Shown: positions 9,640 through 41,527 of the stretch, one piece after another | Numbering within the stretch: the first letter of the stretch is position 1 | Layout: each line of letters begins with the position of its first letter | NCBI GenBank assembly: GCA_007375725.1 | Contig: VMEV01000002.1 | Span: 45,992-109,991, forward strand | Direction: 5' to 3' | Source: Parcubacteria group bacterium Greene0416_36 | GTDB taxonomy: Bacteria > Patescibacteriota > Patescibacteriia > VMEV01 | DNA: 64,000 nucleotides | Notes under the pieces: model-generated | Database searches by the model: none | Seen by the model: the letters and a program-made list of their open reading frames with translations, nothing else | Told to the model about the DNA's origin: nothing | Translations under genes and position numbers: made by a program

Positions 9640-9660
9640 TTTGATGAAAAAAACTATAAA

Positions 9661-9707: not shown

Positions 9708-9709
9708 AC

Positions 9710-10278: not shown

Positions 10279-10308
10279 GGTAGGGGCACAGCGCGCTGTG
10301 CTCCTACC
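10279..10308. repeat. REP-like hairpin GGTAGGGGCACAGCGCGCTGTGCTCCTACC (A-run upstream, T-run downstream)
   Basis: GTAG...CTAC palindrome; related copies inside glycosyltransferase gene at 56169-56226. Confidence 0.55.
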
Positions 10309-10580: not shown

Positions 10581-10988
10581 ATGGATCTCAATCGCGTGTT
10601 TTTAATCGGTCATGTAGTCAAAGAGGTGGAAGTGAAAAAACTAGATAGCGGCAAGCAGTGTGCGCGTATTCTCGTGGCTACTAATTTCAAAAAAGGCAAA
10701 GAGGGGGAGAGTGAGGCTTTGTTTCACGAGGTGGTTGCCTGGGACAAGTTGGCCGAGATTGCGGCGAGTTATCTGGCCAAAGGGAAAAAGGTCTTTTTCG
10801 AAGGCCGATTGGACTATCGCTCGTGGGTGGACAAGGAGAATAAAAAACATTTCCGCACCCAGATTGTCGCGGATGAGATGATCTTGCTCGACCGAAAAAA
10901 TCCCGTCGGTGAGGTAAGCCGCGAGGAAACCGAAGAAGGATCCGTCAAGGTAGGGCTTTCGGAAGATCCGTTTGGGTCGGCGGCGTAG
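10581..10988 (+). CDS. ssb: single-stranded DNA-binding protein
   Basis: OB-fold pattern LIGHVVKEVEVK...RILVATN...VVAWDKLAE...RLDYRSW. Confidence 0.75.
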   Translation: MDLNRVFLIGHVVKEVEVKKLDSGKQCARILVATNFKKGKEGESEALFHEVVAWDKLAEIAASYLAKGKKVFFEGRLDYRSWVDKENKKHFRTQIVADEMILLDRKNPVGEVSREETEEGSVKVGLSEDPFGSAA

Positions 10989-11206
10989 GGTTAGGGTCCG
11001 GGAGGGGGAGAGGATAGCTAATAGCCTAGCCATTCGCTCCTCCTTCCGGAATATTTGCGGGTGATTCGTCGCCGCGGGTGAGGGGCCGGACGGAGAAAAA
11101 GGAAAATCAGACCCGCTGCTAATAGAGGGTCTGATTTTTTTATAAACGACAAGGTTTTATCCTTGGCAATAAAAGAATAAAAAGAAAACCCGCCCTGTTT
11201 AGTTTC

Positions 11207-12319
11207 GTGGATAAGTTGTTGATTTCTAGGTATTCTTTTAAAATGAATAGGGTTATAATAATGGAAAATTCTTTAGTCTTTTTTAACTTTATGGGGGGAA
11301 ATTATGATTCTTGGTTGATTGATATTGAGTCTTTTCCAGCGGATAAAAGCTGGGAAGAGAGGATCAAGTTTTTAATTGGTTTTGCTGTCTTGGCTCCTTC
11401 TAGCCACAATAGCCAGCCTTGGGTATTCAAGATTCGCGAGAATGAACTGTTTATAAATTTTGAGGCATCACGCGATCTGCCAGGAAGCGACCCCGGTGGC
11501 AGGCAGGCATGGACAAGCATTGGATGTGCAATGGAGAATTTGTGTATTTCATCTTCTTTTTACGGGCTTTCTTATAAAATAGAATATTTTTTTGTGGGGA
11601 CGGAAGAACCTTTTGTGAAGGTGATTTTTGAGTTAGCGAAAAATAATGCGGTTAGGCCTTCCCGTACTCTCATGCAGGCAATGCTCAATCGCCGTACCAA
11701 TAGAGGTGCTTATGGCAGGAAGATTCCTCTAGATTTTATTTCTGATGCGGCGGGATTCAATTCTCCGGCGTGCCGTATTGATTTTGTGAGCGATCCTGCT
11801 GGAATAGAAAAAATCGGCGAGATTGTCATTTCTTCGACTATTGATGCTTTCCGCAATCCGCTTTTTGGGCAGGAGCTTTCTGGGTATGTGAAATCCAACT
11901 GGACCCGAGCGGGCGCGGGTATTCCGGGTTTCGCGTTGGGGATTCCGGCTCCTATTTCACTTCTTGCTTCCTTTATGGTTCGCCGATTCAATATGGGAGA
12001 GCTGGGGGCCAAACAGGACCGGCAATTATACCGGGAAGGAACGCCGGTTTGGGGGATGGTGTCCTGTTCGGGGGACCATCGGAAAGATTGGGTTTGCGCT
12101 GGCATGCTGTACGAGAAACTTGCGCTTTTGGCAACCAAAAAAGGATTGGCGAGCGCCATGCAAGCTGCTCCTGTCCAGGTTGGCGAGTATTGGAAGAGCC
12201 TGCAGGAAGTTTTCCGGACGAGTTTTCGTCCGCTGGCCTTGTTCCGTTTGGGTTATCCCAGCCGCGAGGCTCGGCCCACTCCGCGCTTTTCGGCGGATCA
12301 GGTTTTGATTAGCCGCTAA
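11207..12319 (+). CDS. nitroreductase-family protein (two-domain, Acg-like)
   Basis: SHNSQPW motif; alternative start MENSLVFF ~11261; first gene of tight plus-strand cassette. Confidence 0.55.
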   Translation: MDKLLISRYSFKMNRVIIMENSLVFFNFMGGNYDSWLIDIESFPADKSWEERIKFLIGFAVLAPSSHNSQPWVFKIRENELFINFEASRDLPGSDPGGRQAWTSIGCAMENLCISSSFYGLSYKIEYFFVGTEEPFVKVIFELAKNNAVRPSRTLMQAMLNRRTNRGAYGRKIPLDFISDAAGFNSPACRIDFVSDPAGIEKIGEIVISSTIDAFRNPLFGQELSGYVKSNWTRAGAGIPGFALGIPAPISLLASFMVRRFNMGELGAKQDRQLYREGTPVWGMVSCSGDHRKDWVCAGMLYEKLALLATKKGLASAMQAAPVQVGEYWKSLQEVFRTSFRPLALFRLGYPSREARPTPRFSADQVLISR

Positions 12320-12329
12320 AATTTTTTTT

Positions 12330-14873
12330 ATGCAGAAAATTTCATGCCAGAGTTATCCGGACTTTGATAATCATGAATGCGTGGTCAAGATTGAGGATTC
12401 CTCCGTGGGACTTCTCGCTTTTATCGCGATTCATAATAGCGCCTTGGGTCCAGCCACCGGTGGAACGCGTATGTTTGATTACGGGACGGAAGAAGGGGCT
12501 GTCGCCGACGTGCTCCGCCTTTCCCGTGCGATGACCTACAAGTGCGCGGCTGCGGACGTGCCACATGGGGGAGGGAAGGCTGTGATCATGGGGGATCCTA
12601 GAAAAATGAAGACTCCGGCGCTTCTGCGCGCTTTTGCCAAAGCGGTCAATGAGCTGGAAGGAGCTTTTTCAACTGGAACCGATGCGGGGATTACAAAGGA
12701 AGATGTAGAAATCATGAGAGAAGTATCCGGTTTTATCAATGGGAAACATGGGGGAGACCCTGCTCCTTATGCGGCTCTGGGCACTTTTTATGGAATCCAA
12801 AGCGCATTACTGGAATGTTTCGGAAACGCGGATTGTCATGGGAGGGTCGTGGCCATCAAGGGAATAGGAAAAGTGGGGAGATCTTTGATCAGCCTCTTGG
12901 ACAAAGCAGGCGCGAAAATCATCGCGGCCGACATCGATGATGCCGCGGTCGCCTGGGTTAAGTCTCATTTTCCGTCGGTTCGATTGGCCAGTCCGTGGGA
13001 GATCCACCGCCAGAGGGCAGACGTGTTTTGTCCCTGTGCCATGGGGGGGGAGATCAGCCGCAAGGCCGCAATGGAAATTACGGCACGGATTGTCTGTGGC
13101 GCGGCCAATAACCAACTAAGGGATCCGGCTTGCGAGCAGATTTTATTTGGCCGAGGTATTTTGTATGTGCCTGATTTTGTCGCCAATGCTGGGGGGCTGA
13201 TCCATGTGGTCGACGAACTGGCTCCTCTGGGTTATGACGCGGACCGGGTTCGAGAGAAAATCAATAATATCAGATCCTTACTGGGGAATATTTTTGAGCT
13301 TGCAAGGAGGGATCTGCGGCTTCCCAACCAGGTGGCCGAGGAGATTGCAGAAAAAAAATTCAATAAAAAATATCCGGCAAGTCCTTTGGAGATTCACGAG
13401 AATGCAAAAACCCTCCTAGATCTTTATCTTTCCAAGGAAGACCCTTTTTGGGAAAGTTTGAGGGAGAAGAGAACCCTGGAACTGTTCCACGCGGCTGCCC
13501 GTTTGGTGCCCGCTTACTCTGATTTTCTCAAAAAACATGAAGTGAATCCTTCTAAAATCCGGACGTGGTCGGATTTCCAAAAAAATGTTCCCGTGATGGA
13601 TAAGAAAAATTATCTCCGGGCCTATCCCCTAGAGGCGATGACTTGGGGAGGAACCCTCAAAGGGAAGCCCCTTAATTTTGCCGCGACTTCAGGCTCCACT
13701 GGCGTTCCCTTCTATTTTCCCAGAAGCCCGCAGCTGGAGTGGCAGTGTTCGCTGACCCTCGAACTTTTTCTCCGGAGCAGTTCATTTGGCACCCAGGGTC
13801 CAATCGCAGTGATCAATGCTTTTTCTATGGGCGTGTGGATGGGCGGAATGATCACGTTCAAAGCGTTTGACATGATCAATCAGCGAGGCCATTGCCCGGT
13901 TTCGGTTCTATGTACCGGCAACAGCAAGCCGGCTATTTTTGCCGCTCTCCGCGAGTGGGCGCCGCACTTCAGCGAGGTCATTCTCATTGGTTATCCGCCC
14001 TTTATCAAAGATGTGATCGACGAGGGGCCGTCGGAGGGAATTGACTGGTCGAAGATCCGTTTGAGGCTGCATTTCGCGACCGAATCTTTTTCTGAAGAGT
14101 TTCGCGATTATATGGCCCAAAAAGCCTCTCTCAAAAATCCGTATTTGGACACCATGAATATTTATGGTTCCGCGGATATCGGCGCCATGGGTTTTGAGAC
14201 TCCCCAAGCCATACTTTTTAGGAAGTTGATTGTATCTAGCTCCGAGGCCGCTCAGGCTCTCTTCTCGGGCAAGACGGCAACGCTTGCGCAGTTCAATCCT
14301 TATTTCATCAATTTTGAAGCTCCGGATAAAAATGTTCTTCTCAGCGGCGACAACACCATTCCGCTTCTTCGGTACTCGCTGGGAGATAAGGGGGGGGTTT
14401 TGTCTTATAAGGATATGACTGCTCATATGGATACCCATGTTCCGCTGTGGAGGGAAGAAATGTCAAAAGCGGGGATCGTCCAGAGATATTCATTGCCGTT
14501 TGTCTATGTTTATGAGCGGGGAGACCTGTCCGTGAGTTTGTATGGAGCCAAGGTCTATCCGGAAACGATCCGAAAAGTTTTTCTCGAGGGCAGGTTCAGT
14601 GATTTCTATACTGGCAAGTTCACCTTGATTGTTCGCTATGACCAGGAGCAGAACCAGCATCTGGAGGTTCATGTGGAACAAAAAAAAGATGCTCCTCGGT
14701 CAGATTCTAAAATGCTCGCCGATGCGATTGTCGCCCTTTTGGTGCATGAAAATGCCGAGTACCGAAGTCATCATGATCAAATTCCGGACAAGGTTTTGCC
14801 GGACGTGATTCTATGGCCATTTGGGGATCCTCTGCATTTCGGGCCCAATCCCAAACAGCAGTGGATCAAATGA
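12330..14873 (+). CDS. fusion: Glu/Leu/Phe/Val-type amino-acid dehydrogenase (N) + PaaK/CapK/F390-synthetase-like adenylate-forming domain (C)
   Basis: GGTRMFDYG...MTYKCAAADVPHGGGKAVIMGDP and Rossmann IKGIGKVGRSL; C-half TSGSTGVPFYFP adenylation motif. Confidence 0.6.
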   Translation: MQKISCQSYPDFDNHECVVKIEDSSVGLLAFIAIHNSALGPATGGTRMFDYGTEEGAVADVLRLSRAMTYKCAAADVPHGGGKAVIMGDPRKMKTPALLRAFAKAVNELEGAFSTGTDAGITKEDVEIMREVSGFINGKHGGDPAPYAALGTFYGIQSALLECFGNADCHGRVVAIKGIGKVGRSLISLLDKAGAKIIAADIDDAAVAWVKSHFPSVRLASPWEIHRQRADVFCPCAMGGEISRKAAMEITARIVCGAANNQLRDPACEQILFGRGILYVPDFVANAGGLIHVVDELAPLGYDADRVREKINNIRSLLGNIFELARRDLRLPNQVAEEIAEKKFNKKYPASPLEIHENAKTLLDLYLSKEDPFWESLREKRTLELFHAAARLVPAYSDFLKKHEVNPSKIRTWSDFQKNVPVMDKKNYLRAYPLEAMTWGGTLKGKPLNFAATSGSTGVPFYFPRSPQLEWQCSLTLELFLRSSSFGTQGPIAVINAFSMGVWMGGMITFKAFDMINQRGHCPVSVLCTGNSKPAIFAALREWAPHFSEVILIGYPPFIKDVIDEGPSEGIDWSKIRLRLHFATESFSEEFRDYMAQKASLKNPYLDTMNIYGSADIGAMGFETPQAILFRKLIVSSSEAAQALFSGKTATLAQFNPYFINFEAPDKNVLLSGDNTIPLLRYSLGDKGGVLSYKDMTAHMDTHVPLWREEMSKAGIVQRYSLPFVYVYERGDLSVSLYGAKVYPETIRKVFLEGRFSDFYTGKFTLIVRYDQEQNQHLEVHVEQKKDAPRSDSKMLADAIVALLVHENAEYRSHHDQIPDKVLPDVILWPFGDPLHFGPNPKQQWIK

Positions 14874-14915
14874 TTGCCAACTATTTTTTTAATCTTTTAT
14901 TTTTGATGAAAAAAT

Positions 14916-16100
14916 ATGAATATCGAGCAGTTTTTGCTGGAAAAACAAAAAGAGAATCTAGATATCAGCCGGCCTCTCGTTTTAAATTTGGCGGCTGAGT
15001 CTGGGAGAGTGCTTCTGGAATATCTCACTAAAGATGGCAAAATCGCTCGGGTATCGGATGATTTCGAGGAGCAGATGCGGGAATATTTTGCGGTAGAGCA
15101 TCCGGAACTTATTTTCCATCCTGAGTTTAAAAAATATTTCGAAGATTATTGGCAGGGCCTCCTCCACGAGAAGCCAAGATGGCAGCATGGAGTCTGGGTT
15201 TATTTTCCATGGATGCTGTCATTGATTCATGTCTTGGATGAAGAGGCATTCAATTGTGTCCGCACGGCTAGAAATAAGCACCTGATTACGGAAGCGGAAC
15301 AGAAAAAGTTTTATGAATCGACCATTGGAATCGCCGGCCTCAGCGTGGGAAATAGCGTGGCTCTCTCTATTGTTTTGGGCGGGGGAGCCAAGCGCATCAA
15401 GCTGGCTGATTTTGACCGCTTGTCCCTGTCCAATCTCAACCGCATCCGCGGCGGGGTGGAGTGTCTGGGTTTTCTGAAGGTCGAGATGACCGCGCGACAG
15501 ATCTACTCGCTCAATCCGTTTACAGAAGTGGAGTATTTCCCTGGCGGCCTCAATGAAGAGAATATGGATCGTTTTTTCGACGGGCTGGATCTCGTCGTCG
15601 ACGAAATCGATAATCTCGGCATCAAATACCGGATACGTCAGGAAGCCAAAAAACGCAAGCTGCCGGTTGTCATGGCTGCGGATAACGGTGATAATGGCGT
15701 GGTAGATATTGACCGTTATGATCTGGATCCTGAGCTCGAATTTTTCCATGGCCGCATGGGAGATCTCAAGTACGAAGATCTGATCCGCCTCAATAAGATG
15801 GAGATCGGGAAATTGATCACCCGGCTGGTGGGGCCTGAGAATGTGACTGAAAGAATGCAGCAGTCTCTCATGGAAATTGGAAAAACCGTGGTGTCCTGGC
15901 CTCAGCTGGGGGGCGCGGCGCTTCTCAACGGCTCGGCCGTTGCCTATTGCGTGCGTAGGATTCTCAATCATCAAAGTGTGTTTGATAACCGCACTCTCAT
16001 TTCATGGGATGAACTTATGGATCCTGAGCATAATACGGATCTGCAAAAAAAGCACCGAGCGGAGCTGACCCTCGAATTTAAGAAAAAGTTCGGTTTATAA
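14916..16100 (+). CDS. ThiF/MoeB/E1-like adenylyltransferase-family protein with ~130-aa N-terminal extension
   Basis: IGIAGLSVGNSVA...IKLADFDRLSLSNLNRI Rossmann/E1 signature. Confidence 0.6.
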   Translation: MNIEQFLLEKQKENLDISRPLVLNLAAESGRVLLEYLTKDGKIARVSDDFEEQMREYFAVEHPELIFHPEFKKYFEDYWQGLLHEKPRWQHGVWVYFPWMLSLIHVLDEEAFNCVRTARNKHLITEAEQKKFYESTIGIAGLSVGNSVALSIVLGGGAKRIKLADFDRLSLSNLNRIRGGVECLGFLKVEMTARQIYSLNPFTEVEYFPGGLNEENMDRFFDGLDLVVDEIDNLGIKYRIRQEAKKRKLPVVMAADNGDNGVVDIDRYDLDPELEFFHGRMGDLKYEDLIRLNKMEIGKLITRLVGPENVTERMQQSLMEIGKTVVSWPQLGGAALLNGSAVAYCVRRILNHQSVFDNRTLISWDELMDPEHNTDLQKKHRAELTLEFKKKFGL

Positions 16101-16167
16101 AAAAGACGATGGGATTACAGGGTGGAATAAGTTATAATATAATAAATTTATTTTTGTTTCGTCCCTT

Positions 16168-17040
16168 ATGAAAGCTGAACAGAGATTGTTGGGAAAGTTT
16201 GCAACTCCATTTACCCTCGGTCAAATAGATGTGGGAAATTTTCGGATCAATTACATTCAAGGGGGAAAAGGCGAGCCTCTGTTACTCATTCATGGAGCTA
16301 ATATCGGATGGGGCCAGTGGCACTTGAATCTGGATGAAATGGCTAAAAAAAATGAAGTATTCGCGATAGATTTACCAGGATCAGGAGGATCGACTAAAAT
16401 AGAAATGAAGGACTCAAATCTCGAAGAAGATTTTGTGGAGACAGTTCATCAGTTTCTAGAAAAAAAAGGAATTACTCAAGTAAATATCTGCGCACATTCT
16501 TTGGGTGGTTGGGTGGCTTTAAAGCTGTCACTTCGGGCCCCTCAACTTGTGAAGAAAATGGTGCTTCTCAGTCCGGTAGGGCTTTCTTCGTATTTGCCTT
16601 GGCAATATCGACTGATGGGTTTTTCTTTTTTCGTAAGAGTGCTTACCCAGAAATGTGTTCCGGTGAATAGAAAGAATATGGCAGATTTTCTAGGTAGTGT
16701 ATGCAAAAAGAAAGATTTTTTGACGGATGATTTCGTCGATTATTATTTTGAATCTATAACAAGGGGGGAGAGAGTGACACACCCCTTTTGGTGTATCCAC
16801 CGATTGTGTGATATTGGCAAGATGAGGTCTGAGTTTTATTTAGCGGATGAAATAAAAACCATCCGTGCGGAAGTACTATGGATTTGGGGCAGGGAAGATC
16901 CTTTATTTCCATTGAGAAAGAATGCCAATATTTCAAATGCTTTGAAAGGAAAAACTGAAGTTTTTGAGAATACTGGGCATGTTGCCTGTCTTGAAAATCA
17001 TTCGTTATTTAACGAGATTTGTTGTAGGTATCTGGGATAA
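16168..17040 (+). CDS. alpha/beta-fold hydrolase
   Basis: HGANIG oxyanion region, nucleophile elbow HSLGGWVA, C-terminal His. Confidence 0.6.
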   Translation: MKAEQRLLGKFATPFTLGQIDVGNFRINYIQGGKGEPLLLIHGANIGWGQWHLNLDEMAKKNEVFAIDLPGSGGSTKIEMKDSNLEEDFVETVHQFLEKKGITQVNICAHSLGGWVALKLSLRAPQLVKKMVLLSPVGLSSYLPWQYRLMGFSFFVRVLTQKCVPVNRKNMADFLGSVCKKKDFLTDDFVDYYFESITRGERVTHPFWCIHRLCDIGKMRSEFYLADEIKTIRAEVLWIWGREDPLFPLRKNANISNALKGKTEVFENTGHVACLENHSLFNEICCRYLG

Positions 17041-17061
17041 AAATACAAATTACAATTCCTT

Positions 17062-19230
17062 ATGGGGGGAGTTATAGCGCTAAGGCTAGGTATTTTGAGC
17101 GTTGTTATCGTTTTGAATTTTTTCGTTTCAATTTTTGTTTATAGAAAAAATCGCCAAAGTGCGACGAATATTATATTCGTTATTCTTACAGCTTTGATTT
17201 CCGCTTGGCTGGTAGTTTTGTTTTTGGCTGATTATCCTGAGCTTAATTTATTTTGGGCCAGAATGACTAATTTTGTGGCAACGGCGATGAGCCTTGCTTT
17301 TTTGCTTTTGGTTCACACATTACCAGACTTTCAGCTGAGAATGCGAAAACGTAGTTTGTTTTTTCTGCTAAGCGTGACCCTGATTGTCATGATAGCGACT
17401 GTTTCTCCCTATACATTTACAGGGATTGATATTGTGGATGGGGTTCGGCAAGTAAAAGTGGGGCCTGGGATGATTTTGTTTTCTCTGTTCAACCCTCTGT
17501 GTAATATCGCAGCTATTTATTTGCTCTTCGAGAAATATCGACGTGCTTCTGGGATAGAGAAACAGCAGCTGCGATTTATTCTTTTGGGTATTTTCGTCAT
17601 GTTCGCGATGATTATCGCGACTATTTTGATTCCTGTTTTATTTTTTCAGCAGCATTTTTACGTCGCCTTTGCTCCTTTGTATGCATTGTGTTTTATTTTT
17701 GGAACAGCTTATTCAATTGTCAAATATCGTTTCCTTGATATCCGCCTCGTGATACGAAAAAGCGTGGCATATGCATTGTCGCTGAGTGTGACCTTGGGGG
17801 TTTGCGGGCTCATCATGAATGCAATGATCTATGCGAGCCCCTATCAGTCCTGGTTCGGTTATTTTATTTTGGTTTTGGGCATTGTTTTATTCAATCCTAT
17901 CCACAAAAAAATATTGGTTATTTCCAATCGGTATTTTTTTCAGTCTTTTTATGATTATAGGAAAGCTCTGCTTGAAACTGGCCAGAAAATTTTGAGTCTC
18001 ATTACCCTCGAAGATATTTCGCGGGAGATTTTCGTACCCCTCTTGCGCAATTTACAGCTGGAATTTTGCGGCATTTATCTTTCATACAAAAAACCGTTTT
18101 TTCACGCCTTGTCTGAATCGGGAGAATTTGAAGTTCCCAAAAAAGAATTAGCGTCGCTCGCTCATTTATTGTCTCTTTATTCAAAAGGTAGAATTATTCT
18201 GGCTCAGGAATTCTATTCCCGCAAATTTCATCTTTCGGCTGAATTCAAGCAAAAGATGGTGAGCAATAAAATTGAGGTGATTTTGCCGCTCATTTCAGGT
18301 AAAAATTTTCTTGGGTTTTTATTTTTGGGCTCCAAAATTTCACGAGAACCCTTCACTCTTGAAGATATTCAGCTTTTGGAGCTTATCAATACCCAGCTTT
18401 CCCCGGCCATTGCCAATGCTAGCCACTTCCGAGAGCTCAAAATCGTCAATGTCCATTTGGAAGAAAAAGTGGCCGAACAAGTGCAAAAAATCCGAGATCT
18501 TTATGATGTCAAAGCCGAATTTTTGAGCATTAGCTCCCATCAGCTCCGAACCCCTCTGACCGTCATCATCGGGATGCTCGATATGATTCGAGAGGGAGCG
18601 GTGCGCGGCAAAAAACGCGATGATTTTTTATCTAAAGTAATGGCTTCGGCTGTGAGACTGAACCGGGTTGTCAATGATATTATGGATTCCCATGAATTGG
18701 ACCGTGGCGCCAAACATTACAAAAAAGGCCTTGTTGATTTACGTGATATGATTAAAAATGTCTATGATGCTTTTTTGCCTAAAGCTCAAGAGAAAAATGT
18801 GGAATTGAAATTAGATTTTGTATCTAGTAATTCATTGATTTGGGCGGACCCTAAAATTCGAGATGTTTTTGTCAATCTGATCGATAATGCCCTCTGCTAT
18901 ACCCCTAAAGGGGCGGTGACGGTGAAACTCTACAATTCAGATGCCCATCATGTTGGCGTGGACGTGGTGGATTCTGGGGTTGGCATGTCGAAAGATACGA
19001 TTGCGTCTCTCTTTCAGAAGTTTTCGCGAGGGAAGAATATTCGGCAGATCCGTCCCAATGGATCGGGGTTGGGATTGTTTATTGTGCGAAAAATTCTTGA
19101 AAATAATCACGGATCCGTTGAGGCAACCTCTATGGGAGAAGGTACTGGCAGTACCTTTTCCGTGCGCCTGCCGATTGCTTCTCCCAAATATTTGGTCCGG
19201 TCAGCGGAAAAGGAAAATGAAACCGAGTAG
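17062..19230 (+). CDS. sensor histidine kinase with multi-TM N-terminal sensor region
   Basis: ~7 TM helices, HisKA H-box ISSHQLRTPLTVI, HATPase_c (DNALCYT..GSGLGLFIV). Confidence 0.75.
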   Translation: MGGVIALRLGILSVVIVLNFFVSIFVYRKNRQSATNIIFVILTALISAWLVVLFLADYPELNLFWARMTNFVATAMSLAFLLLVHTLPDFQLRMRKRSLFFLLSVTLIVMIATVSPYTFTGIDIVDGVRQVKVGPGMILFSLFNPLCNIAAIYLLFEKYRRASGIEKQQLRFILLGIFVMFAMIIATILIPVLFFQQHFYVAFAPLYALCFIFGTAYSIVKYRFLDIRLVIRKSVAYALSLSVTLGVCGLIMNAMIYASPYQSWFGYFILVLGIVLFNPIHKKILVISNRYFFQSFYDYRKALLETGQKILSLITLEDISREIFVPLLRNLQLEFCGIYLSYKKPFFHALSESGEFEVPKKELASLAHLLSLYSKGRIILAQEFYSRKFHLSAEFKQKMVSNKIEVILPLISGKNFLGFLFLGSKISREPFTLEDIQLLELINTQLSPAIANASHFRELKIVNVHLEEKVAEQVQKIRDLYDVKAEFLSISSHQLRTPLTVIIGMLDMIREGAVRGKKRDDFLSKVMASAVRLNRVVNDIMDSHELDRGAKHYKKGLVDLRDMIKNVYDAFLPKAQEKNVELKLDFVSSNSLIWADPKIRDVFVNLIDNALCYTPKGAVTVKLYNSDAHHVGVDVVDSGVGMSKDTIASLFQKFSRGKNIRQIRPNGSGLGLFIVRKILENNHGSVEATSMGEGTGSTFSVRLPIASPKYLVRSAEKENETE

Positions 19231-22751: not shown

Positions 22752-24386
22752 ATGAATTTGGTCTGGATATTTTCATTGATTGTTTCATTGGGGGCTTTTA
22801 TTTTAGGAGCCATTATTTTCTTGTATAAAAGCAAAAAAGGATCTAATTCGATCTTTGCATTGCTCTGTATCCTCTTAGGTTTTTGGTCTTTTTCTAATCT
22901 CCTTTCTTTTGGATCTTCAAATGACATTCAAATTTTATTCTGGTCTCAATTGACAATTGTCGGACCTTTTTTTGCCGGGCCTTTATTGTTCTTGTTTAGT
23001 ACGGTTTTTCCCGTACATCAGAGTATCTCAAGGAAATTTTTGTTTTATTTGTTTACGCCCGCTTTTCTTTCTTTGTTATTTGTTTTTTCGAGGTGGAATA
23101 TCTCGTCGGTATCTTCCGGCAATGAGTCACTTCAATTTGAACCCGGATTATTATATATCGTTTTGTTTATTTATCTCATGACTACGGTATCCGGCGCATT
23201 TTATAATTTGAGACTTTCATTTCTTCAGTCTGATGATACTTTAATCCGATCTCAAATTAAATTGGTTTCTTTGGGTTTCATCTGTTTGACCGCCCTAGGA
23301 GGGGGGACTAATTTGATTTCGCCTTTGTTTTTTGGAAATTCTCAAGGCTCTATTTGGGGGCCGCCTGTCTCTTTGTTTTTATTCATTATCTTTATCGGCC
23401 TCGCCATTCTTCGATACCGATTCCTTAATATCAGATTAATTTCCGTTCATGCCATTTCATTTTTCATCGCCTTTATTTTATTGTTTCAGGCTTTTTTTTC
23501 CGTGTCTGGCTTGGAATTGGCCTTCCGATTTTTATTTTTTATCATTGTTTCGATTTTATTGTTCTTCTTGTCCCGCTCCGTCGCGCATGAGATCAAAATC
23601 AAAAACGAATTAGCAAATTTGAACGTGGAATTGTCCCGGACAAACCGGAAGCTTGAGAATTTGAATAACCGTCTGCAGGTTTTGGATATCGCGAAATCCG
23701 AGTTCGTCTCTATCGCATCTCATCAGCTCCGGACGCCGCTGACTGTCATGAAGGGCTATCTGTCCATGATCGGCGAAGGGGTTTTTGGGCCGATGTCGTC
23801 TCGGCCGCTGCGAGACGTGATGAATAAAATGACGCGGAGTACGGACCGCTTGATCGATCTGGTCAATGATCTGCTCAATGTCTCGCATATCGAGAGCGGC
23901 AAGCTGGATTTGTATTGGGAGCACTTGGATGTTGGGGAATTGGCCTCGTCCGTCGTATCGGATCTGGCACCCAGAGCCTCCGTGAAAAAAATTAATATTC
24001 AGCTCAATCGGCCTTCGTTTGTGGTGGGCAAAGTTAAATCCGATGGCCGAAAATTGGCGGAAGTAATGACGAATTTGATCGATAATGCGATTAAATATTC
24101 TCCGGAGAATACGGTTGTGGATATCTTTGTCTATCAAAAATCAGGAGATGTCTTTTTTTCCGTCAGGGACCAAGGGATCGGTGTTGATCCCGCTAATATC
24201 GAGCGCTTGTTTCAGAAATTTTCTAGGATGGATGAGACTTATGTCACGAGGGTAGAGGGGTCGGGGCTGGGACTTTTTGTATGCAAAAAACTGATCGACA
24301 TGTTCGGCGGCCGTATTTGGGCTGAAAGCCGCGGCAAAGGCCACGGCTCCACTTTCACCTTTGCCCTGAAAGTTGTGGAATCATAA
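22752..24386 (+). CDS. sensor histidine kinase, multi-TM, paralogue of 17062-19230
   Basis: H-box IASHQLRTPLTVM, HATPase_c GSGLGLFVCKKLI; N-terminal ~8 TM helices. Confidence 0.75.
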   Translation: MNLVWIFSLIVSLGAFILGAIIFLYKSKKGSNSIFALLCILLGFWSFSNLLSFGSSNDIQILFWSQLTIVGPFFAGPLLFLFSTVFPVHQSISRKFLFYLFTPAFLSLLFVFSRWNISSVSSGNESLQFEPGLLYIVLFIYLMTTVSGAFYNLRLSFLQSDDTLIRSQIKLVSLGFICLTALGGGTNLISPLFFGNSQGSIWGPPVSLFLFIIFIGLAILRYRFLNIRLISVHAISFFIAFILLFQAFFSVSGLELAFRFLFFIIVSILLFFLSRSVAHEIKIKNELANLNVELSRTNRKLENLNNRLQVLDIAKSEFVSIASHQLRTPLTVMKGYLSMIGEGVFGPMSSRPLRDVMNKMTRSTDRLIDLVNDLLNVSHIESGKLDLYWEHLDVGELASSVVSDLAPRASVKKINIQLNRPSFVVGKVKSDGRKLAEVMTNLIDNAIKYSPENTVVDIFVYQKSGDVFFSVRDQGIGVDPANIERLFQKFSRMDETYVTRVEGSGLGLFVCKKLIDMFGGRIWAESRGKGHGSTFTFALKVVES

Positions 24387-28307: not shown

Positions 28308-30200
28308 TTATTTCCAAACTCGTTTTGTTTCAATATACCACTCACTGAGATTATTAAACCGGTCGCTGGGTTTGACGATATGATCGATATCGAAATTCTT
28401 GATGTCGTTCGACAAAATGTAGTTGTAGGTGGGGCTGTAAAGAAACAGCGCGGGAATTTCCCCCGATAGAATCTCTAGAAACTGTTTATATAATACTTCT
28501 CTCTGTGTCAAATCTTGATTTTGACGGGCATCGATGATAAGTTTATCGGCATTTTTGTCGGCAAAAGAGGTGAGGTTAAGTCCGGGGTCCTTGGCTTGAG
28601 AAGAATGCCAAAAAGCATAAGGATCGGGATCCAATCCGATATTTTGACCGTAGAGGAGGGCCTCATACTGCCGTTTTTTGATGATTTCTTTTTGTATTTT
28701 TGGGGCGTCAAATAATTTGAGCTCTACCTGCGCTCCAATTTTTTCCCAATAGTCTCGGATCAGTTCTGCTGCTTTTTTGTTTTCCGGATGATCTACCGTT
28801 GTAAGAGAGATGGAAAGAATATGGCCGTCTTTTTCACGGAAAAACTCTTGAGATATGGAGGGAGTTGCTGAATTTTCTAGAAAGGGTTCGAGTTCCTGAT
28901 CGGGTATGTTTTTGGGGTCTTTATCTGACAGTGCGGCGGGGAGGGTTTTATCTTTTTCCGAATCTTTTTTTGCGGCGAAGTTTTTTTCCATCCGGGTTCG
29001 GAGCTGTTTTATCGCTTGTTTTTTTTGCCTGTCTTTATACTCCTGCTGTGATATTTTCTGATATCCCGCCTCTTCGAGTAATTGATTGGCTTTTTGGGGA
29101 TCATAGGAGTCAGAGGGGGTTTGGGGGCCAAGAGATAAGAGGGGGTTATCAATCATTTTTCCTTGTTCTTCCAGCGCATAGTCAATGATTTTTTGTTTAG
29201 AAATCGCAAGTGACAGGGCCTGCCGGACGGTTTTGTTCTGGAGAATATTATTTTGATCTTGGTTGAAAAAAATGGCGGTATATTGAGGGAATGAGAGGGG
29301 GTGGGTAATCAAATGTTGGTTGCCCCTGATTGAGTCTTGTTCTTTTTGAGGCAAGAAATTGATGCCGTCGATTGTGCCATTTTGTATAGCGAGAGTGAGG
29401 TCGGTGGTATTTGCGAAAAAACGGAATTCAATTTTCTCTAGATAGGGTCTCTCTCCGTAAAAATTATCATTTCGGACTAGCGTATAAGATAAAATGGTTC
29501 CTTTCTTGTCTTTTTCTAGGGAATCAAACTTCCAAGGTCCGGAACCGATAGGTTTGCGATTATATTCCACGAGTTTCCAGTTTACAGCTGGGATTTCAGC
29601 CCAAATATGTTTGGGCAAAATCCCGAAAGTCAGGAGAGTGGGAAAAGGGGCGAAGGGCTTTTTGAGGGAAAATTTGAGCGTGTGGGGATCGATTTTTTGA
29701 TATTCTACTCCCCTGAGGCTTAGAAATAAAGGGCTTTGATAGGCCGGATCTAAAATGGCGTCAAGAGTAGCCACGACATCATCGGCATTAAATTTAGCCC
29801 CATCATGCCAATAGACATCTTGGCGCAGAGTGAGGGTGTAGATCAGGGAATCACTGGATATCTCGTAGTCGAGAGCCAGATCGGGTACGAGTTCTTGTTC
29901 TTTATTATATTTGAGCAATCCTGAATACACGAGGGAAGAGATATCATTGTCGATATCGCTGGTTTGAGAGAAGAGCGGATTCAAATAGAGCGGCGTGCCG
30001 ATGCTTCCTTCCGTATATTTGCCTCCCGATTGGGCGACTAGTTGTGTCCGGTTTAATATAAAAGAGGCTCCGATATAGGCGAAGCTCAACACAATAATAG
30101 AGAGCAGTATTTTTAACAGCAGATTTTCTCGGCGTGATAGAATTTTGGGCGTGCTGCGAATCTGTTTCCAAGTGGGAATTTTTTTTCTTTCCAAAAGCAT
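28308..30200 (-). CDS. extracellular solute-binding protein family 5 (OppA/DppA-like) with N-terminal membrane anchor
   Basis: SBP_bac_5-like core (YTLTLRQDVYWHDGAKFNADDVVATL); ORF-track N-terminus overlaps secG, true start likely Met ~30200. Confidence 0.6.
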   Translation of the reverse strand: MLLERKKIPTWKQIRSTPKILSRRENLLLKILLSIIVLSFAYIGASFILNRTQLVAQSGGKYTEGSIGTPLYLNPLFSQTSDIDNDISSLVYSGLLKYNKEQELVPDLALDYEISSDSLIYTLTLRQDVYWHDGAKFNADDVVATLDAILDPAYQSPLFLSLRGVEYQKIDPHTLKFSLKKPFAPFPTLLTFGILPKHIWAEIPAVNWKLVEYNRKPIGSGPWKFDSLEKDKKGTILSYTLVRNDNFYGERPYLEKIEFRFFANTTDLTLAIQNGTIDGINFLPQKEQDSIRGNQHLITHPLSFPQYTAIFFNQDQNNILQNKTVRQALSLAISKQKIIDYALEEQGKMIDNPLLSLGPQTPSDSYDPQKANQLLEEAGYQKISQQEYKDRQKKQAIKQLRTRMEKNFAAKKDSEKDKTLPAALSDKDPKNIPDQELEPFLENSATPSISQEFFREKDGHILSISLTTVDHPENKKAAELIRDYWEKIGAQVELKLFDAPKIQKEIIKKRQYEALLYGQNIGLDPDPYAFWHSSQAKDPGLNLTSFADKNADKLIIDARQNQDLTQREVLYKQFLEILSGEIPALFLYSPTYNYILSNDIKNFDIDHIVKPSDRFNNLSEWYIETKRVWK

Positions 30201-30294
30201 GCGTATGGCATGGTCTTCTTGTTTTGTCTCATCGCTGGTCTCGACTGTCCTAGAAAATCTGTTGGGATTGAATCGGTCAAAAATTGCCACAGAT

Positions 30295-30504
30295 CTAGTA
30301 TAAAATATTAACAAGGGCCAATATGAAAAAAGCGACCGAACACAGAATGGTGATACGGTGAATGATTTTTTCCGCTCCCCGTTTGGTCTGATAGAGGGCG
30401 CCGGAGCCCCCAAAAATGCCTCCCAAAGAAGATCCTTTTCCCTGAAGAAGAACCAGGACGATGAGAATGATTGATAATATGAGCTGTGTAATATCGAGAG
30501 CCAT
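30295..30504 (-). CDS. secG: preprotein translocase subunit SecG
   Basis: 69 aa, two TM helices, LLQGKGSSLGGIFGGSG...KRGAEK signature. Confidence 0.6.
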   Translation of the reverse strand: MALDITQLILSIILIVLVLLQGKGSSLGGIFGGSGALYQTKRGAEKIIHRITILCSVAFFILALVNILY

Positions 30505-30719
30505 AGAACTAAGTTATATAAGTCACAAGTTATAAATGACAAGTCATTAGTTATTTATCACGCCATAGTCCCGCCTTTTGCGGGGCGAAGGCGGACAAGT
30601 AGACAGCCAAGGGGAGAGGTGGTTTTATTTGTGATTTGTCATTTGTGACTTGTGATTTCTGTTGTTTAACATAGTCTACCATATCAAAATTCGCTTGTCG
30701 GTGTCAATCGAGACGAGTC

Positions 30720-31505
30720 GTGGATTCTAAATGTAAAAATGCGTATAATGCCTTTGATCTTACCTCGGTTTATTTTATGGAAGAGCAAAAAAATCCTCCG
30801 GACCGGAAATTTATCTCACAAATCTTATTTTTCGCCCTTTTGTTTCTAGTTCTTGTGGCTGTGGGAGCTGGAATTGCTTTGTATTCATTTTTTCAATCTG
30901 AAAAGTCGCTGGGGCCTGGCGAATTATCCGGAGGCGCCATAACGGTCACCGAGTATGGGGATCCGGTGATCGGCCCGGCCAATGCTCTTATATCGGTCTA
31001 TGAATTCTCAGATTTTTCTTGCTCTTTCTGTCGCCAATCAGCTGATAGTCTTCGTTCCATATTGCTTCGCTACGATGGAAAGGTAAAATGGGTTTATAAA
31101 GATTTTCCGATTGCCTCGCTTCATCCCAACGCAATGATAGCCGCTATGGCTGGAGCCTGCGCCCATGAGCAGGGAAAATTCGTGGCCATGCACGATGCGA
31201 TTTTTGCCAATCAGCAATATCAAAGCCGTGAGAATTTGATCCGATACGCCAAAACCGTGGGCCTCGGCCAATCCCAGTTTATCGAGTGTTTGGATTCCAG
31301 CAAATTCCAGTCCGAGGTGGAGAGCGATTTGCGCGAAGGGATATCTCTCGGTGTCACTGCCACCCCCACTTGGTTCATCAATGGGCAGAAGATTGAAGGG
31401 GCGTTGTCGGAGGAGGAGCTGGCCAAGATATTTGATCAAATTCTTGGAGAAATTAAGAATGAAGAATTAAGAATGAACAGCCAATTCACTGTTGTTCATT
31501 CTTAA
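30720..31505 (+). CDS. membrane-anchored DsbA-like thioredoxin-fold thiol-disulfide oxidoreductase
   Basis: CSFC active-site CxxC, single N-terminal TM; possible start at MEEQKNP ~30777. Confidence 0.55.
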   Translation: MDSKCKNAYNAFDLTSVYFMEEQKNPPDRKFISQILFFALLFLVLVAVGAGIALYSFFQSEKSLGPGELSGGAITVTEYGDPVIGPANALISVYEFSDFSCSFCRQSADSLRSILLRYDGKVKWVYKDFPIASLHPNAMIAAMAGACAHEQGKFVAMHDAIFANQQYQSRENLIRYAKTVGLGQSQFIECLDSSKFQSEVESDLREGISLGVTATPTWFINGQKIEGALSEEELAKIFDQILGEIKNEELRMNSQFTVVHS

Positions 31506-31526: not shown

Positions 31527-32441
31527 TTGTGTATGCGTTCATTCCTCCTCTTCATCCTTTCTTTTGCTATCGGGACCGGCGTGTTTGCCTGGACCAATCC
31601 GACGGCCACGCCTCCTAATAATAATGTGGCGTTGTTTAGTCCTTGGCAGCCGAGCGGGAGTGATATTTTTTTTAGTGCGGGCAATGCAAGTGTGGGGACC
31701 AATACTGCTCTGACTCCGCTGACCCTCAAGGGCCCCCAGATTCCGGTTTTTTCGAGCGCGACTCGTGGAACCCTTACTGTTACGGGAGACTATACCGCCG
31801 GGCGTTATATGGCGATTGATTTTGCTTACAATCCAACGGCTAATCCGACCGCGCGTATTGCCGCGTATCATGATGGCGGAGGATCTCGATTATATTTGGG
31901 GACTTCTTCAAATTATGCCAGCGGTATTACTAGCTATGGTTTGACCGTGGATCCCAGCGGTAATGTGGGGGTAAAAATGTCGCCCAATGGGCCGACCTTG
32001 CATGTCAATGGCGCCATTGGAGCTACACAGTGGGTGGGAGCAGGGTGCGAGACAGGATGCAGTGCGGATGCTTATGTCCTCCTCTATCCCGATGGCCGAG
32101 GAGTGGCCACTACCGGCTGGCAGGTGGCTTCGGATGCACGCCTGAAGAAAAATGTGATTCCTCTTGGCGGCATGTTTGATAAAATTGAGCAATTACGGGC
32201 CGTGGAATTTGAATGGAAAGATCCCAAGAGGAATCAAGGCAAACAAATCGGATTCATCGCGCAGGAAGTGGAAAAAGTGATGCCTGTCTTGGTGAGCCAA
32301 GACATGACCGGATATAAAAATGTCAATTATGGCGTTGTCTCGGTCATGCTTGTAGAGGCCATGAAAGAAATGAACGCCAAGTATCAAAAACAAATCGAGA
32401 GTTTGGAAGAGAGAGTGAGGGAATTGGAGGGGCGAAAATAG
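31527..32441 (+). CDS. secreted tail-fibre-like protein with C-terminal intramolecular-chaperone (peptidase S74-like) domain
   Basis: C-term SDARLKKNVIPL...EWKDPKRNQGKQIGFIAQEVEKVMPVLVS matches endosialidase-chaperone pattern. Confidence 0.55.
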   Translation: MCMRSFLLFILSFAIGTGVFAWTNPTATPPNNNVALFSPWQPSGSDIFFSAGNASVGTNTALTPLTLKGPQIPVFSSATRGTLTVTGDYTAGRYMAIDFAYNPTANPTARIAAYHDGGGSRLYLGTSSNYASGITSYGLTVDPSGNVGVKMSPNGPTLHVNGAIGATQWVGAGCETGCSADAYVLLYPDGRGVATTGWQVASDARLKKNVIPLGGMFDKIEQLRAVEFEWKDPKRNQGKQIGFIAQEVEKVMPVLVSQDMTGYKNVNYGVVSVMLVEAMKEMNAKYQKQIESLEERVRELEGRK

Positions 32442-32490
32442 ACACATAAAAAATTGCAGGGGTAGGTTTCAAACTTACCCCTGTAATTTT

Positions 32491-33006
32491 TTATTCCACG
32501 ACCTCCGGCGCGAATTTCGGCAGTGGTCTATTATCAAAAAAATTGATTTCGGTGGCGTTGATTTCGGTTTCGTAGGTGAGGTCGTCGGTGGATGATATCT
32601 CTATATTGATTCCGGTTGTGAGAGAATTGATGGTTGGTGGATTATCTAGTGCGGGAAGAATGGGATTGTTTTTAAAAGCCACGGCGGTACTTAGAGACCA
32701 AGTTATTATTCTTTCGATGGGTGCTGGGATTCGGAGGGGGTGCAGTACGATTTGTGCCGTCTCTAGGACCATGGTTCGATTGGAAGCGTCCATGCTTCGG
32801 ATGATGCCTGAAATAGTATTGCTTGGCGCGGATGGATACAAATTATCCAAAAAATCGGTCGCTTGTTTTAGTTCGGAGCGTATTTTTTCTTTCTCCATTC
32901 TTTCCTGTCCGAGCCGGTGGTCCAGATTCCAGATGGCGTAACCTCCCGCAACCGATAGAGCGAGAAGACAAAAAAATACGAATAGATATTTGGCGGAAGG
33001 ATGCAT
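32491..33006 (-). CDS. hypothetical membrane-anchored protein
   Basis: N-terminal TM, 171 aa. Confidence 0.35.
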   Translation of the reverse strand: MHPSAKYLFVFFCLLALSVAGGYAIWNLDHRLGQERMEKEKIRSELKQATDFLDNLYPSAPSNTISGIIRSMDASNRTMVLETAQIVLHPLRIPAPIERIITWSLSTAVAFKNNPILPALDNPPTINSLTTGINIEISSTDDLTYETEINATEINFFDNRPLPKFAPEVVE

Positions 33007-33158
33007 ATAAAAAATTATTTATTTTCTGTCATTATAGTTTTTTTATTTGCGGGTGGGAAATGATATGCTAGGTGGTAGGAAGTAGTTGGTAGTGAGTAGG
33101 AAATAAAAATTACTATAACTACTCACTACTCCCTACAAACTACTCACTAATTTTTTCT

Positions 33159-33833
33159 ATGTATAAACGCATCATTCAACAATCCGCCGTCTCGATCATC
33201 ACCTTCGGCGTGTTGGTCGTGGGTTACAACGCCATGGGCGCAGCATGGGTGGGGCCGACGGCCAATCCGCCGGGCAATAACGCGGAAGCGCCCATCAATG
33301 TGGGAGCCGCCGCGCAGGTGAAATCTGGAAGCTTAGGGCTGGGGGTGGCAGTTCCTTCCGCGCCTCTTCATATTCAGGGAAATGGAGGGGTTTTACGCCT
33401 GCAGAGCAATGTGGCGGGGATTGCCGGCAGTGTGAATACAATGTTTTATGATAGCTCGGGAACTCGCCTCGGATATGTGGGGGACGCCTCTTCGGGGAAC
33501 AACCACATTTATCTCGGGTCAGATGTGGGGAATGTGTATCTGAATACTGCCGCGGGTGCCGGAGTGACCGTGACGGCCGGGGGCAATGTCGGCATCATGA
33601 ATGCCAGTCCGACGTCTCGATTGCAAGTGTCCGGCAATCTACGCGTTGATGGATCGATATGTTTTGGCACGGATTGCCGCAGTTCGTGGCCCATAATACC
33701 TGGCACTGGGACTGAAGAATATATTGTCACGAATACTACCGGATTTATTCGTTGTCCGAGCGGGAAAGTGATGACCGGAGTCGGATATTCTGCCTCGGGA
33801 GACGATCATGTCACTTATCTTATCTGTCGATAA
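33159..33833 (+). CDS. secreted tail-fibre-like repeat protein
   Basis: N-terminal AWVGPTANPPGNN motif shared with 31527 gene; GNVGI / SRLQVSGNLRV fibre-like repeats. Confidence 0.45.
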   Translation: MYKRIIQQSAVSIITFGVLVVGYNAMGAAWVGPTANPPGNNAEAPINVGAAAQVKSGSLGLGVAVPSAPLHIQGNGGVLRLQSNVAGIAGSVNTMFYDSSGTRLGYVGDASSGNNHIYLGSDVGNVYLNTAAGAGVTVTAGGNVGIMNASPTSRLQVSGNLRVDGSICFGTDCRSSWPIIPGTGTEEYIVTNTTGFIRCPSGKVMTGVGYSASGDDHVTYLICR

Positions 33834-40865: not shown

Positions 40866-40922
40866 TTTTGTCAATATACCCATCCTCCCCATTATTTTGT
40901 AAGATAGGCGGGAATTGGGGAA
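40866..40922. repeat. 56-bp motif copy B, immediately 5' of RAYT start codon
   Basis: ends GGGAATTGGGGAAAT-ATG; ORF-track N-terminus (MSIYPSS...) is read-through of this motif. Confidence 0.5.
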
Positions 40923-40924
40923 AT

Positions 40925-41527
40925 ATGTCGGTCACATATGAATGGGAGCGGAAATCGATGAGACTTGTGGGCTATGATTATTCGAAGCCGGGGTTTTATT
41001 TTGTGACGGTTTTGACGAAGGATAGGGAATGTTTGTTTGGGGAGATTGAAGAGGGGGAGATGAGGTTGGGTGAGATGGGAAAGATTGCGGAGGGAGAGTG
41101 TTTGAAAACTTCGGAGATTCGAAAAAACATCAAGGTTGATTGTTTTGTGGTGATGCCAAATCATGTTCATGGGATTATTGAGATTATGGATGTTGACGGC
41201 GATCCGGGTAAGGACAATGTACTCGAGTCTCGACCTGGTAAGGGCACGGTGCTTGAGAGTCTACCCGGTAAGGGCGTATTGCAATACGCCCTTACCTCGA
41301 GTCGGGTGGGGTTTCGTTCTCCGTCCAATAATCTTGGTGCCGTGATCAGGGGATATAAATCATCAGTCACCAAACAAATCAATGACCTTCGTAATACCCC
41401 GTGCAATCCTGTCTGGCACCGCAACTACCACGATCACATCATCCGATCACTGGAGGAACTTGAAAATATCCGAGAGTATATAAAAAATAATCCACGAAGA
41501 TGGAAAGACGATCCGGAGAATGTTTAA
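40925..41527 (+). CDS. REP-associated tyrosine transposase (RAYT; IS200-like HuH transposase) carrying in-frame REP/tandem-repeat insert
   Basis: HuH motif MPNHVHGII, C-terminal WHRNYHDHIIRS...IREYIKNNPRRW; standalone, no IS ends recognised. Confidence 0.7.
   Translation: MSVTYEWERKSMRLVGYDYSKPGFYFVTVLTKDRECLFGEIEEGEMRLGEMGKIAEGECLKTSEIRKNIKVDCFVVMPNHVHGIIEIMDVDGDPGKDNVLESRPGKGTVLESLPGKGVLQYALTSSRVGFRSPSNNLGAVIRGYKSSVTKQINDLRNTPCNPVWHRNYHDHIIRSLEELENIREYIKNNPRRWKDDPENV
41204..41306 (+). repeat. three tandem ~30 bp repeats (CCnGGTAAGGnCAnnGTnCTnGAGnCTCnA), third containing REP GTAAGGGCGTATTGCAATACGCCCTTAC (41268-41295), in-frame inside RAYT
   Basis: encodes PGKDNVLESR / PGKGTVLESL / PGKGVLQYAL in the loop where RAYTs normally have a Gly-rich segment. 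Confidence 0.65.

Follow-up and report, generated by a model that had tools for sequence, protein, structure and literature searches.

Two tail-fibre-like genes of a Parcubacteria bacterium share a signal peptide and an N-terminal module with a large family of putative surface fibres

A 64,000-nucleotide stretch of the genome of Parcubacteria group bacterium Greene0416_36, an ultra-small bacterium of groundwater (contig VMEV01000002.1, positions 45,992 to 109,991; hereafter the window), contains two closely spaced genes, here called gene 1 and gene 2, whose products resemble the tail fibres of phages. Both proteins start with a Sec-type signal peptide followed directly by the motif W-x-x-P-T-A-x-P-P-x-N-N, and this motif opens a conserved N-terminal module that recurs in thousands of other proteins. 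On balance, it is probable that the two genes code for surface fibres of the Parcubacteria cell that are exported by Sec, resemble phage tail fibres and belong to a very large lineage-specific family in which the shared module forms the cell-proximal end. An earlier annotation made from the DNA letters (the original prediction) had described the two genes as host-encoded, secreted and tail-fibre-like, and this description agrees with their signal peptides, their matches to PHROG families and the housekeeping genes that surround them.

The N-termini of the two window proteins have the same layout: an n-region with K/R, a hydrophobic stretch and a small-x-Ala site, after which comes either AWTNPTATPPNNN or AWVGPTANPPGNN. 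The junctions read VFA followed by WTNPTATPPNNN in gene 1 and GAA followed by WVGPTANPPGNN in gene 2. In a six-frame scan of the 64 kb, the simplified pattern P[TS]..PP..N was encountered at two places only, which are genes 1 and 2. A hidden Markov model (HMM) was trained on 136 other family members, leaving out the window proteins, and applied to the 844 six-frame open reading frames (ORFs) of at least 40 aa in the window. This independent HMM recovered gene 2 with E 1.6e-15 (positions 1-33 of 45) and gene 1 with E 4e-5 (positions 1-15), and none of the remaining ORFs scored below E 0.2.

The 13-residue motif is the start of a module of ~45 residues with the consensus W-T-G-P-T-A-x-P-P-x-x-N-V-x-A-P-I-N-V-G-x-x-x-Q-x-K-x-G-x-L-G-V. 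Several homologues from other metagenomes that carry a C-terminal S74 domain share the start and continue as ...NNNVAAPINVGxxxQxKxGxLGVNGLAVFGN, and most members prolong the conserved region to ~100 residues (YLNFG..GYGIRDN.GTLEFKN.GG.W). An exhaustive search of 1.84 billion representative proteins with our own 51-column module profile, in which gene 2 is included, returned 6,872 protein clusters at E<=1e-3, apparently almost all of them patescibacterial, of which 998 reached E<=1e-10; the match nearly always set in at residue ~18-45, just behind the signal peptide. A word-indexed search with the same profile returned only fragments of <=93 aa and is uninformative on family size. The independent HMM and these clusters show that the shared motif of the original prediction is real and recurrent, and the two points on which that prediction had staked itself, profile support for an S74 domain and recurrence of the motif, both came out in its favour. 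A stretch of 13 residues with biased composition invites the objection that the resemblance is due to chance or to low-complexity P/T/N-rich sequence; the exhaustive search, which finds thousands of proteins with the module in the same place behind the signal peptide, and the independent HMM, which scores the two genes and no other window ORF, refute this objection, and we give it next to no credence. The module has no model in Pfam (127 members searched) or NCBIfam (genes 1 and 2, P0016 and P0025 searched, E<=1), and a sequence search of the PDB with the family profile yielded chance haemagglutinin matches only and no solved structure for the module. Both window genes carry shortened versions of it. 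In gene 2, WVGPTANPPGNNAEAPINVGAAAQVKSGSLGL together with the preceding Ala corresponds to positions 1-33 of the 45-position module. In gene 1 the shortening is severe: WTNPTATPPNNNVA, together with the Ala at position -1 of the signal peptide, corresponds to positions 1-15, and the remainder of the module is missing. One other family protein with such a short motif was seen, P0006.

The hydrophobic segment noted in the original prediction is present in both proteins; what had been taken there for part of a possibly novel sorting or processing signal is better described, from its sequence features, as an ordinary Sec signal peptide with a site of the signal peptidase I (SPase I) type. Across 165 family members, residue -1 is Ala in 93%, residue -3 is mostly A/V/L, and residue +1 is Trp in 100%, this Trp lying at median residue 28; K/R is found in the n-region of 162 of the 165, and in 160 at least 12 consecutive residues are uncharged. 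Given this Ala(-1)/Trp(+1) signature, the motif is predicted to be the N-terminus of the mature protein and not part of a new export signal. The signal peptide could instead be left uncleaved, in which case the N-terminal helix would be a membrane anchor and the Pro-rich peptide a wall-spanning stalk or a trimer clamp above the membrane. Pro/Thr-rich segments are typical of monoderm surface proteins as wall-spanning linkers, the AlphaFold 2 (AF2) model of gene 2 places residues 3-28 in one long helix, and no partner protein is encoded in the window; the GYAWS motif of the candidate partner described below occurs nowhere in the 64 kb. An uncleaved anchor is nevertheless unlikely, though it deserves some weight: it leaves the SPase I signature unaccounted for, and the ~20 near-invariant positions of the module would be needless in a plain spacer.

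The S74 domain of gene 1 is genuine. The mechanically called ORF of this gene (31527-32441) opens at a TTG codon at 31527; the ATG at 31533, 6 bases inside, is the likelier start and matches the deposited 302-aa protein. The product is identical to P0002, deposited from Parcubacteria bacterium Gr01-1014_18 as a "cell wall surface anchor family protein". That label is unsupported, since gene 1 has no LPXTG motif: LP.T[GAN] is found in neither window protein, and gene 1 ends in ...RVRELEGRK. The search with S74 and tail-fibre profiles that had been suggested as a check matched residues 202-256 to Pfam Peptidase_S74 (PF13884) with E 1.1e-17 and 64.5 bits, well above the cut-off of 22 bits and spanning profile positions 1-57 of 58. 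The SDxxxK Ser-Lys motif, of the catalytic type, is present as S200-D-A-R-L-K205, and aligns with SDeRLK and SDrRiK of the solved tail fibres 8jov and 6f45. Gene 1 also matches dozens of PHROG tail-fibre families, in every case through its C-terminal 100-180 residues, and has the baseplate-binding N-domain of none of them. Compared with the canonical family member P0003, the first 15 residues of the predicted mature chain are 80% identical and the last 175 residues 45% identical, with a different middle; over the last ~60 residues of the gene 1 shaft and tip, the identity to the P0003 tip before S74 is likewise 45%. From these alignments gene 1 looks like a mosaic.

Gene 2, identical to the deposited hypothetical protein P0001 (G01um101418_195), matches no Pfam family at E<=1; the S74 domain named in the heading of the original prediction stands for gene 1 and not for gene 2. 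A word-indexed homologue search with gene 2 returned only the protein itself. Its C-terminus instead forms a putative Cys knob with the elements C-F-G-T-D-C-x3-W (C168/C173) and C-P-S-G-x2-M-x-G...Y-L-I-C-R (C199/C223), and a motif census of 272 family proteins found this tip type to be common to a subgroup that includes Kaiserbacteria proteins. The shaft holds one GNVGI...SRLQVSGNLRV motif of tail-fibre type, at 33582-33596. What had been read as GNVGI / SRLQVSGNLRV repeats are therefore not repeats, as each protein has a single copy, which corresponds to the common tail-fibre motif GNVGIG..P..L.V.G often found before a tip. The alignment-based AF2 model of the gene 2 monomer has a predicted local distance difference test score (pLDDT) of 70 and a predicted template modelling score (pTM) of 0.34, compared with pLDDT 35 for a single-sequence run; after the N-terminal helix it shows an extended module, short beta strands and a terminal hairpin. 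No significant fold match to this model was found. The best Foldseek matches in the PDB are Bdellovibrio fibre tips at a non-significant E ~0.4, and the weak viral fold matches are mostly tail-fibre proteins.

The architecture of the family as a whole is one of a constant N-terminus joined to a variable C-terminus. Paralogues of the same locus are most alike in the module (69% identity), with 45% in the signal peptide and 32% over the rest of the protein; between loci, the module is at 44%, the signal peptide at 18% and the rest at 28%. Pfam searches of 127 members detected Peptidase_S74 in 22, Gly_rich_2 in 8, Shufflon_N in 3 and Gp34_trimer in 2, with GP38, Collar, the T7 tail-fibre N-domain, C1q and others once each, and many of the remaining members end in Cys-rich knobs. 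One member, encoded at 7926-9098 of locus L003, has no S74 domain and ends in a Hint/intein-like self-processing C-terminus (Vint E 2.9e-8, Hint 6.8e-8), which from its profile matches appears to be a second type of autoprocessing end in this family.

The distribution of the family was surveyed by a locus scan of one genome per species using a tight alignment as query, from which the 76 best loci were retained; these are not a random sample. Nearly all carry the labels Patescibacteria, Paceibacterota, Kaiserbacteria, "Saccharibacteria", Nealson-, Taylor-, Yonath-, Giovannoni- or Falkowbacteria, or Minisyncoccia. Seven of the 76 are labelled otherwise (Hyphomicrobiales, Alphaproteobacteria, Roseiarcus, Ignavibacteriaceae), so that restriction of the family to Patescibacteria is likely but not proven. 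In two of these seven the fibre genes lie in what look like mobile or defence islands: in L005 (1-16132, Alphaproteobacteria, on a 964-kb contig) and L031 (1-16132, Hyphomicrobiales), fibre and GYAWS genes are found among Replic_Relax, TrwB/TraG coupling-protein, C5-methylase, SMODS and TIR genes. Either the taxon labels of these two loci are wrong or the family is carried there on mobile elements.

The resemblance to phage proteins raises the question of whether the window genes are the remnant of a prophage or tailocin, with leftover tail-fibre genes whose shared N-terminus once bound a baseplate. Gene 1 is strongly similar to the C-termini of phage tail fibres in PHROG, a constant N-terminus with a variable C-terminus is the rule in phage fibres, and the weak fold matches of gene 2 are dominated by tail-fibre proteins. 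With the phage fibres and tailspikes that bear a C-terminal intramolecular chaperone domain (CIMCD; endosialidase K1F, the T5 L-shaped fibre, S16 gp37), gene 1 shares the S74 domain, the Ser-Lys motif and a GNVG(I/V) motif before it. Gene 1 differs from these fibres, however, in its Sec signal peptide, a feature that gene 2 also has, and in its non-phage chromosomal context. The part of the window scanned with profiles comprises the larger ORFs across 35-19230 and 21410-44773, and among these no capsid, terminase, integrase or tail genes were detected, in accordance with the original prediction that such genes are not nearby. Relatives of the N-module were absent from 2.9 million viral contigs searched with the locus-scan query, and the genes of relatives lie inside the ribosomal str operon or beside tRNA synthetase genes. 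Given this evidence, a prophage or tailocin origin of the present genes is very improbable.

The genomic contexts of the relatives were derived by clustering the neighbouring ORFs at the 76 loci, with identities verified by Pfam. As in the window, these contexts consist of chromosomal housekeeping genes, and fibre genes often follow one another in tandem on one strand, in arrays that reach about nine copies. At 21 of the 76 loci they are found within 4 kb of genes for elongation factor G (EF-G), EF-Tu or ribosomal proteins (the str/S10 context), with the typical order rpsL-rpsG-fusA-[fibre genes]-tuf-rpsJ-rplC. One to four fibre genes, mostly in the same orientation, separate fusA from tuf in L003 (4462-10988), L004, L008, L013, L014, L019, L025, L041, L048 and L066, and L044 and L039 have arrays of up to nine copies directly upstream of rplC. 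A second recurrent neighbour, within 3 kb of the fibre genes at 47 of the 76 loci (e.g., L003 7039-7923, L017 3170-4165 and L029 6445-7605), encodes a protein with a signal or transmembrane (TM) segment, about four G[YW]AWS(D/E)xIGWIS repeats and then Ig-like or Cys-rich parts. No model for this GYAWS-repeat protein was found in Pfam or NCBIfam, and it is a candidate partner of the N-module.

A third context concerns the type IV pilus. In line with the pili accessories that the original prediction had raised as a question, the fibres may be tip adhesins or pilus-associated accessories whose N-module would couple them to the pilus machinery. Fibre genes lie within 4 kb of pilB/pilC at six of the 76 loci, and in the five clearest cases, L017 (3170-11305), L029 (6445-16132), L033, L051 and L062, they share the strand of pilB-pilC and three pilin-like genes and lie directly upstream of them, which is circumstantial support for such a role. 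Type IV pili are described as known host-attachment organelles of cultivated Patescibacteria (PMC11623550). Further parallels are found with the R64 PilV shufflon adhesins and type IV pilins, which likewise have a constant N-terminus, variable C-terminal binding segments and tandem or cassette-like paralogues, and the PilV-type Shufflon_N domain occurs in the few family members mentioned above. In contrast to PilV and the pilins, the window genes have no class III (prepilin) signal, show no invertible segments and are not near pilus genes. A prepilin is cut between the G and the F/M of G-F/M-x-x-x-E, whereas the family has Ala at -1, Trp at +1 and no E5, and its hydrophobic stretch comes before the conserved motif and not after it; identification of either gene as a type IV pilin or pseudopilin was rejected on the missing class III signal. 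Moreover, 70 of the 76 loci and the window itself are not beside type IV pilus genes, and a pilus-accessory role is on the whole quite unlikely.

The features of the two genes and of their immediate neighbours are collected in Table 1.

Table 1. Coordinates of gene 1, gene 2 and adjacent features in the 64-kb window
Feature	Position	Strand	Basis and remarks
DsbA-like thioredoxin, membrane-anchored	30720..31505	+	Pfam Thioredoxin_4 4e-29, DSBA 4e-19
Gene 1, 302-aa secreted tail-fibre-like protein with C-terminal S74 domain	31533..32441	+	ORF, Pfam, PHROG
Gene 1 signal peptide MRSFLLFILSFAIGTGVFA, predicted SPase I site between V-F-A and W	31533..31589	+	Sequence and family cleavage-site statistics
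Gene 1 N-terminal peptide WTNPTATPPNNNVA	31590..31631	+	Independent HMM, E 4e-5
Gene 1 shaft and tip, residues 34-199, with GNVGV motif and Cys172/Cys176 pair	31632..32129	+	
Gene 1 S74 intramolecular chaperone/autoprotease domain	32130..32438	+	Begins at S200-D-A-R-L-K205; short coiled-coil-like tail at end
Small single-TM protein, 171 aa	32491-33006	-	Flanks gene 2
Gene 2, 224-aa secreted fibre-like protein without S74 domain	33159..33833	+	
Gene 2 signal peptide MYKRIIQQSAVSIITFGVLVVGYNAMGAA, predicted cleavage between G-A-A and W	33159..33245	+	
Gene 2 N-module WVGPTANPPGNNAEAPINVGAAAQVKSGSLGL	33246..33341	+	HMM, E 1.6e-15; extended coil in AF2, pLDDT ~70
Gene 2 beta-rich shaft	33342..33653	+	AF2 strands 70-146; weak PHROG tail-fibre match
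Gene 2 C-terminal Cys knob	33654..33830	+	Motif census; AF2 terminal beta-hairpin 205-223
Small single-TM protein, 185 aa	33876-34433	+	Flanks gene 2, begins 43 nt past its stop

The gene for the DsbA-like protein is separated from the gene 1 ATG by 28 nt on the same strand with no terminator-like site in between, and the two may be co-transcribed. The DsbA-like protein, through its putative association with the fibres, may oxidise the paired cysteines of the exported proteins. The two small single-TM proteins that flank gene 2 were considered as fibre partners and rejected: they have no family match, are not paralogues of each other and are not kept beside the fibre genes of relatives. Among the scanned window ORFs, the remaining neighbours are housekeeping and sensor genes encoding polynucleotide phosphorylase (PNPase), histidine kinases, pyruvate kinase, RNase J, a family-5 solute-binding protein (SBP_5), FolD, serine hydroxymethyltransferase (SHMT) and isoleucyl-tRNA synthetase (IleRS). 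The SBP_bac_5 gene (28308-30542, minus strand), called as a 744-aa ORF from a TTG codon, is over-extended at its 5' end, and the over-extended part contains in another frame a 69-aa ORF (30295-30504, minus strand), which is Gly-rich and of membrane type and which by eye resembles SecG. Two paralogous histidine kinases with an N-terminal HisKA_7TM domain lie less than 6 kb apart (17062-19230 and 22752-24386, both on the plus strand), and a kinase similar to this pair is found near a fibre gene in L077 (2509-4143). The sole hint of a mobile element among the profile-scanned ORFs is a weak, sub-threshold match of a 219-aa ORF (40868-41527, plus strand) to an IS200-like Y1 transposase (E 6.5e-4).

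An analogy for how the N-module may act is provided by the BclA exosporium fibres of Bacillus, in which the leader LVGPTLPPIPP is cleaved and then anchors the trimeric fibre to BxpB. Like this leader, the module is a Pro-rich N-terminal peptide bearing G-P-T-x-P-P, which proteolysis would expose and which would stand at the foot of a trimeric surface fibre with a globular tip. The likeness covers ~6 residues and serves as a working analogy for anchoring; the collagen repeat and sporulation context of BclA are absent here, and the NCBIfam search reported above, whose models include one for the exosporium leader, gave no match for any of its four queries.

Among the closest known systems are the experimentally characterised mosaic adhesive trimer (MAT) fibres of Bdellovibrio bacteriovorus, which have a signal peptide, an invariant N-domain and a trimeric shaft that bears a tip of the S74 or the non-S74 type (Caulton et al. 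2024, Nat Microbiol, PMC10769870), and which are displayed on the predator surface, where they bind prey glycans (PMC10769870). Both systems are chromosomal and occur in bacteria that live on other bacteria, and both combine a signal peptide and an invariant N-region with a phage-like shaft and exchangeable tips; S74 and non-S74 subfamilies exist in each, as do database labels of the kind "cell wall anchor / tail fibre". The MAT feature of a signal peptide with a fibre that ends in an S74 or alternative tip is found in the window genes. For both, the N-domain is proposed to bind a surface element and a connection with type IV pili has been considered (for MAT, PMC10769870). There are also differences. 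The host is a monoderm Patescibacterium here and a diderm predator in the case of MAT, and the window proteins are 224-302 aa in length compared with ~1,000 aa. The conserved N-terminal element, a Pro-rich peptide of 15-45 residues (up to ~100 in canonical relatives), is set apart by description from the ~130-aa beta-rich domain of MAT, and the Bdellovibrionales S74 protein P0022 is without the N-module. The placement between fusA and tuf or near pilB and the GYAWS partner are features of the relatives studied here that are undescribed for MAT, and the Candidate Phyla Radiation (CPR) is unmentioned in PMC10769870. Fibre adhesins of phage type are a known concept in bacteria, and it appears to be the lineage-wide N-module, the partner gene and the operon placement that are undescribed; no account of the module, of the GYAWS-repeat protein or of patescibacterial fibre genes placed between fusA and tuf was found in the literature searched, which is no proof of absence.

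From the domain logic of phage receptor-binding fibres and of the MAT fibres, we propose a sequence of export, trimerisation, retention and binding for the surface fibres of the present bacterium. Following Sec export, SPase I would cut after A-x-A and leave the invariant Trp as the first mature residue. The Pro-rich W-T-x-P-T-A-x-P-P-x-N-N and the subsequent A-P-I-N-V-G...Q-x-K-x-G-x-L would form the constant, cell-proximal end and hold the fibre on a conserved envelope component, and the rest of the chain would fold as a short beta-rich shaft with an exchangeable binding tip. In gene 1, the S74 domain would nucleate trimer folding and then cleave itself off at Ser200, leaving a mature chain of ~180 residues. 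In gene 2, the tip would be a small knob closed by disulfide bonds, which the neighbouring DsbA may introduce; C172/C176 of gene 1 and C168/C173 and C199/C223 of gene 2 are candidate substrates of this DsbA. The fibre would be retained on the cell via its constant N-module while the tip contacts the target. Its likely role is in the recognition of or attachment to host-cell surfaces by an episymbiotic bacterium, or in a fibrous coat on the surface of that bacterium.

Several points weigh against this interpretation. The trimer of either gene is a prediction, the model of the gene 2 monomer is only moderate and lacks a significant fold match, the shafts of both genes are short for a fibre, and cleavage of the signal peptide is predicted from sequence statistics. 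With 14-15 and 33 module residues kept, genes 1 and 2 are atypical and possibly degenerate members of the family. They are also peripheral copies that stand in none of its three recurrent contexts: the GYAWS neighbour is missing, and neither the fusA-tuf nor the pilB context was found among the scanned neighbours, so that the two genes could be orphan copies. Building on the surface-fibre interpretation, one may speculate further that the W-T-G-P-T... module is a new anchoring signal active after the signal-peptidase cut, in which the exposed Trp-Pro-rich peptide plugs, possibly covalently, into a dedicated base, either the aromatic-rich GYAWS-repeat protein encoded nearby or the type IV pilus. 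This would constitute a Patescibacteria-specific display system for interchangeable receptor-binding fibres, encoded in many lineages in the str operon between fusA and tuf and serving as the main host-recognition organelle, with the window genes as spare tips for the same socket. We put this forward tentatively, and regard it in its full extent as doubtful.

How the mostly uncultivated Patescibacteria/CPR recognise and hold on to their hosts is largely unexplained beyond type IV pili. At least ~7,000 clusters of proteins with tips of the phage receptor-binding type on a constant module would be prime candidates for determinants of host range, and their genes stand in tandem, often inside one of the most conserved and highly expressed of bacterial operons. 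A signal peptide followed by WTGPT..PP..N..APINVG offers a sequence marker by which such genes can be found. As both the module and its GYAWS-repeat neighbour are absent from Pfam and NCBIfam, they represent annotation gaps that are easy to close. With this family, the principle seen in the MAT fibres, of predators borrowing the design of phage fibres, would reach a second bacterial group, far larger and likewise living on other cells.

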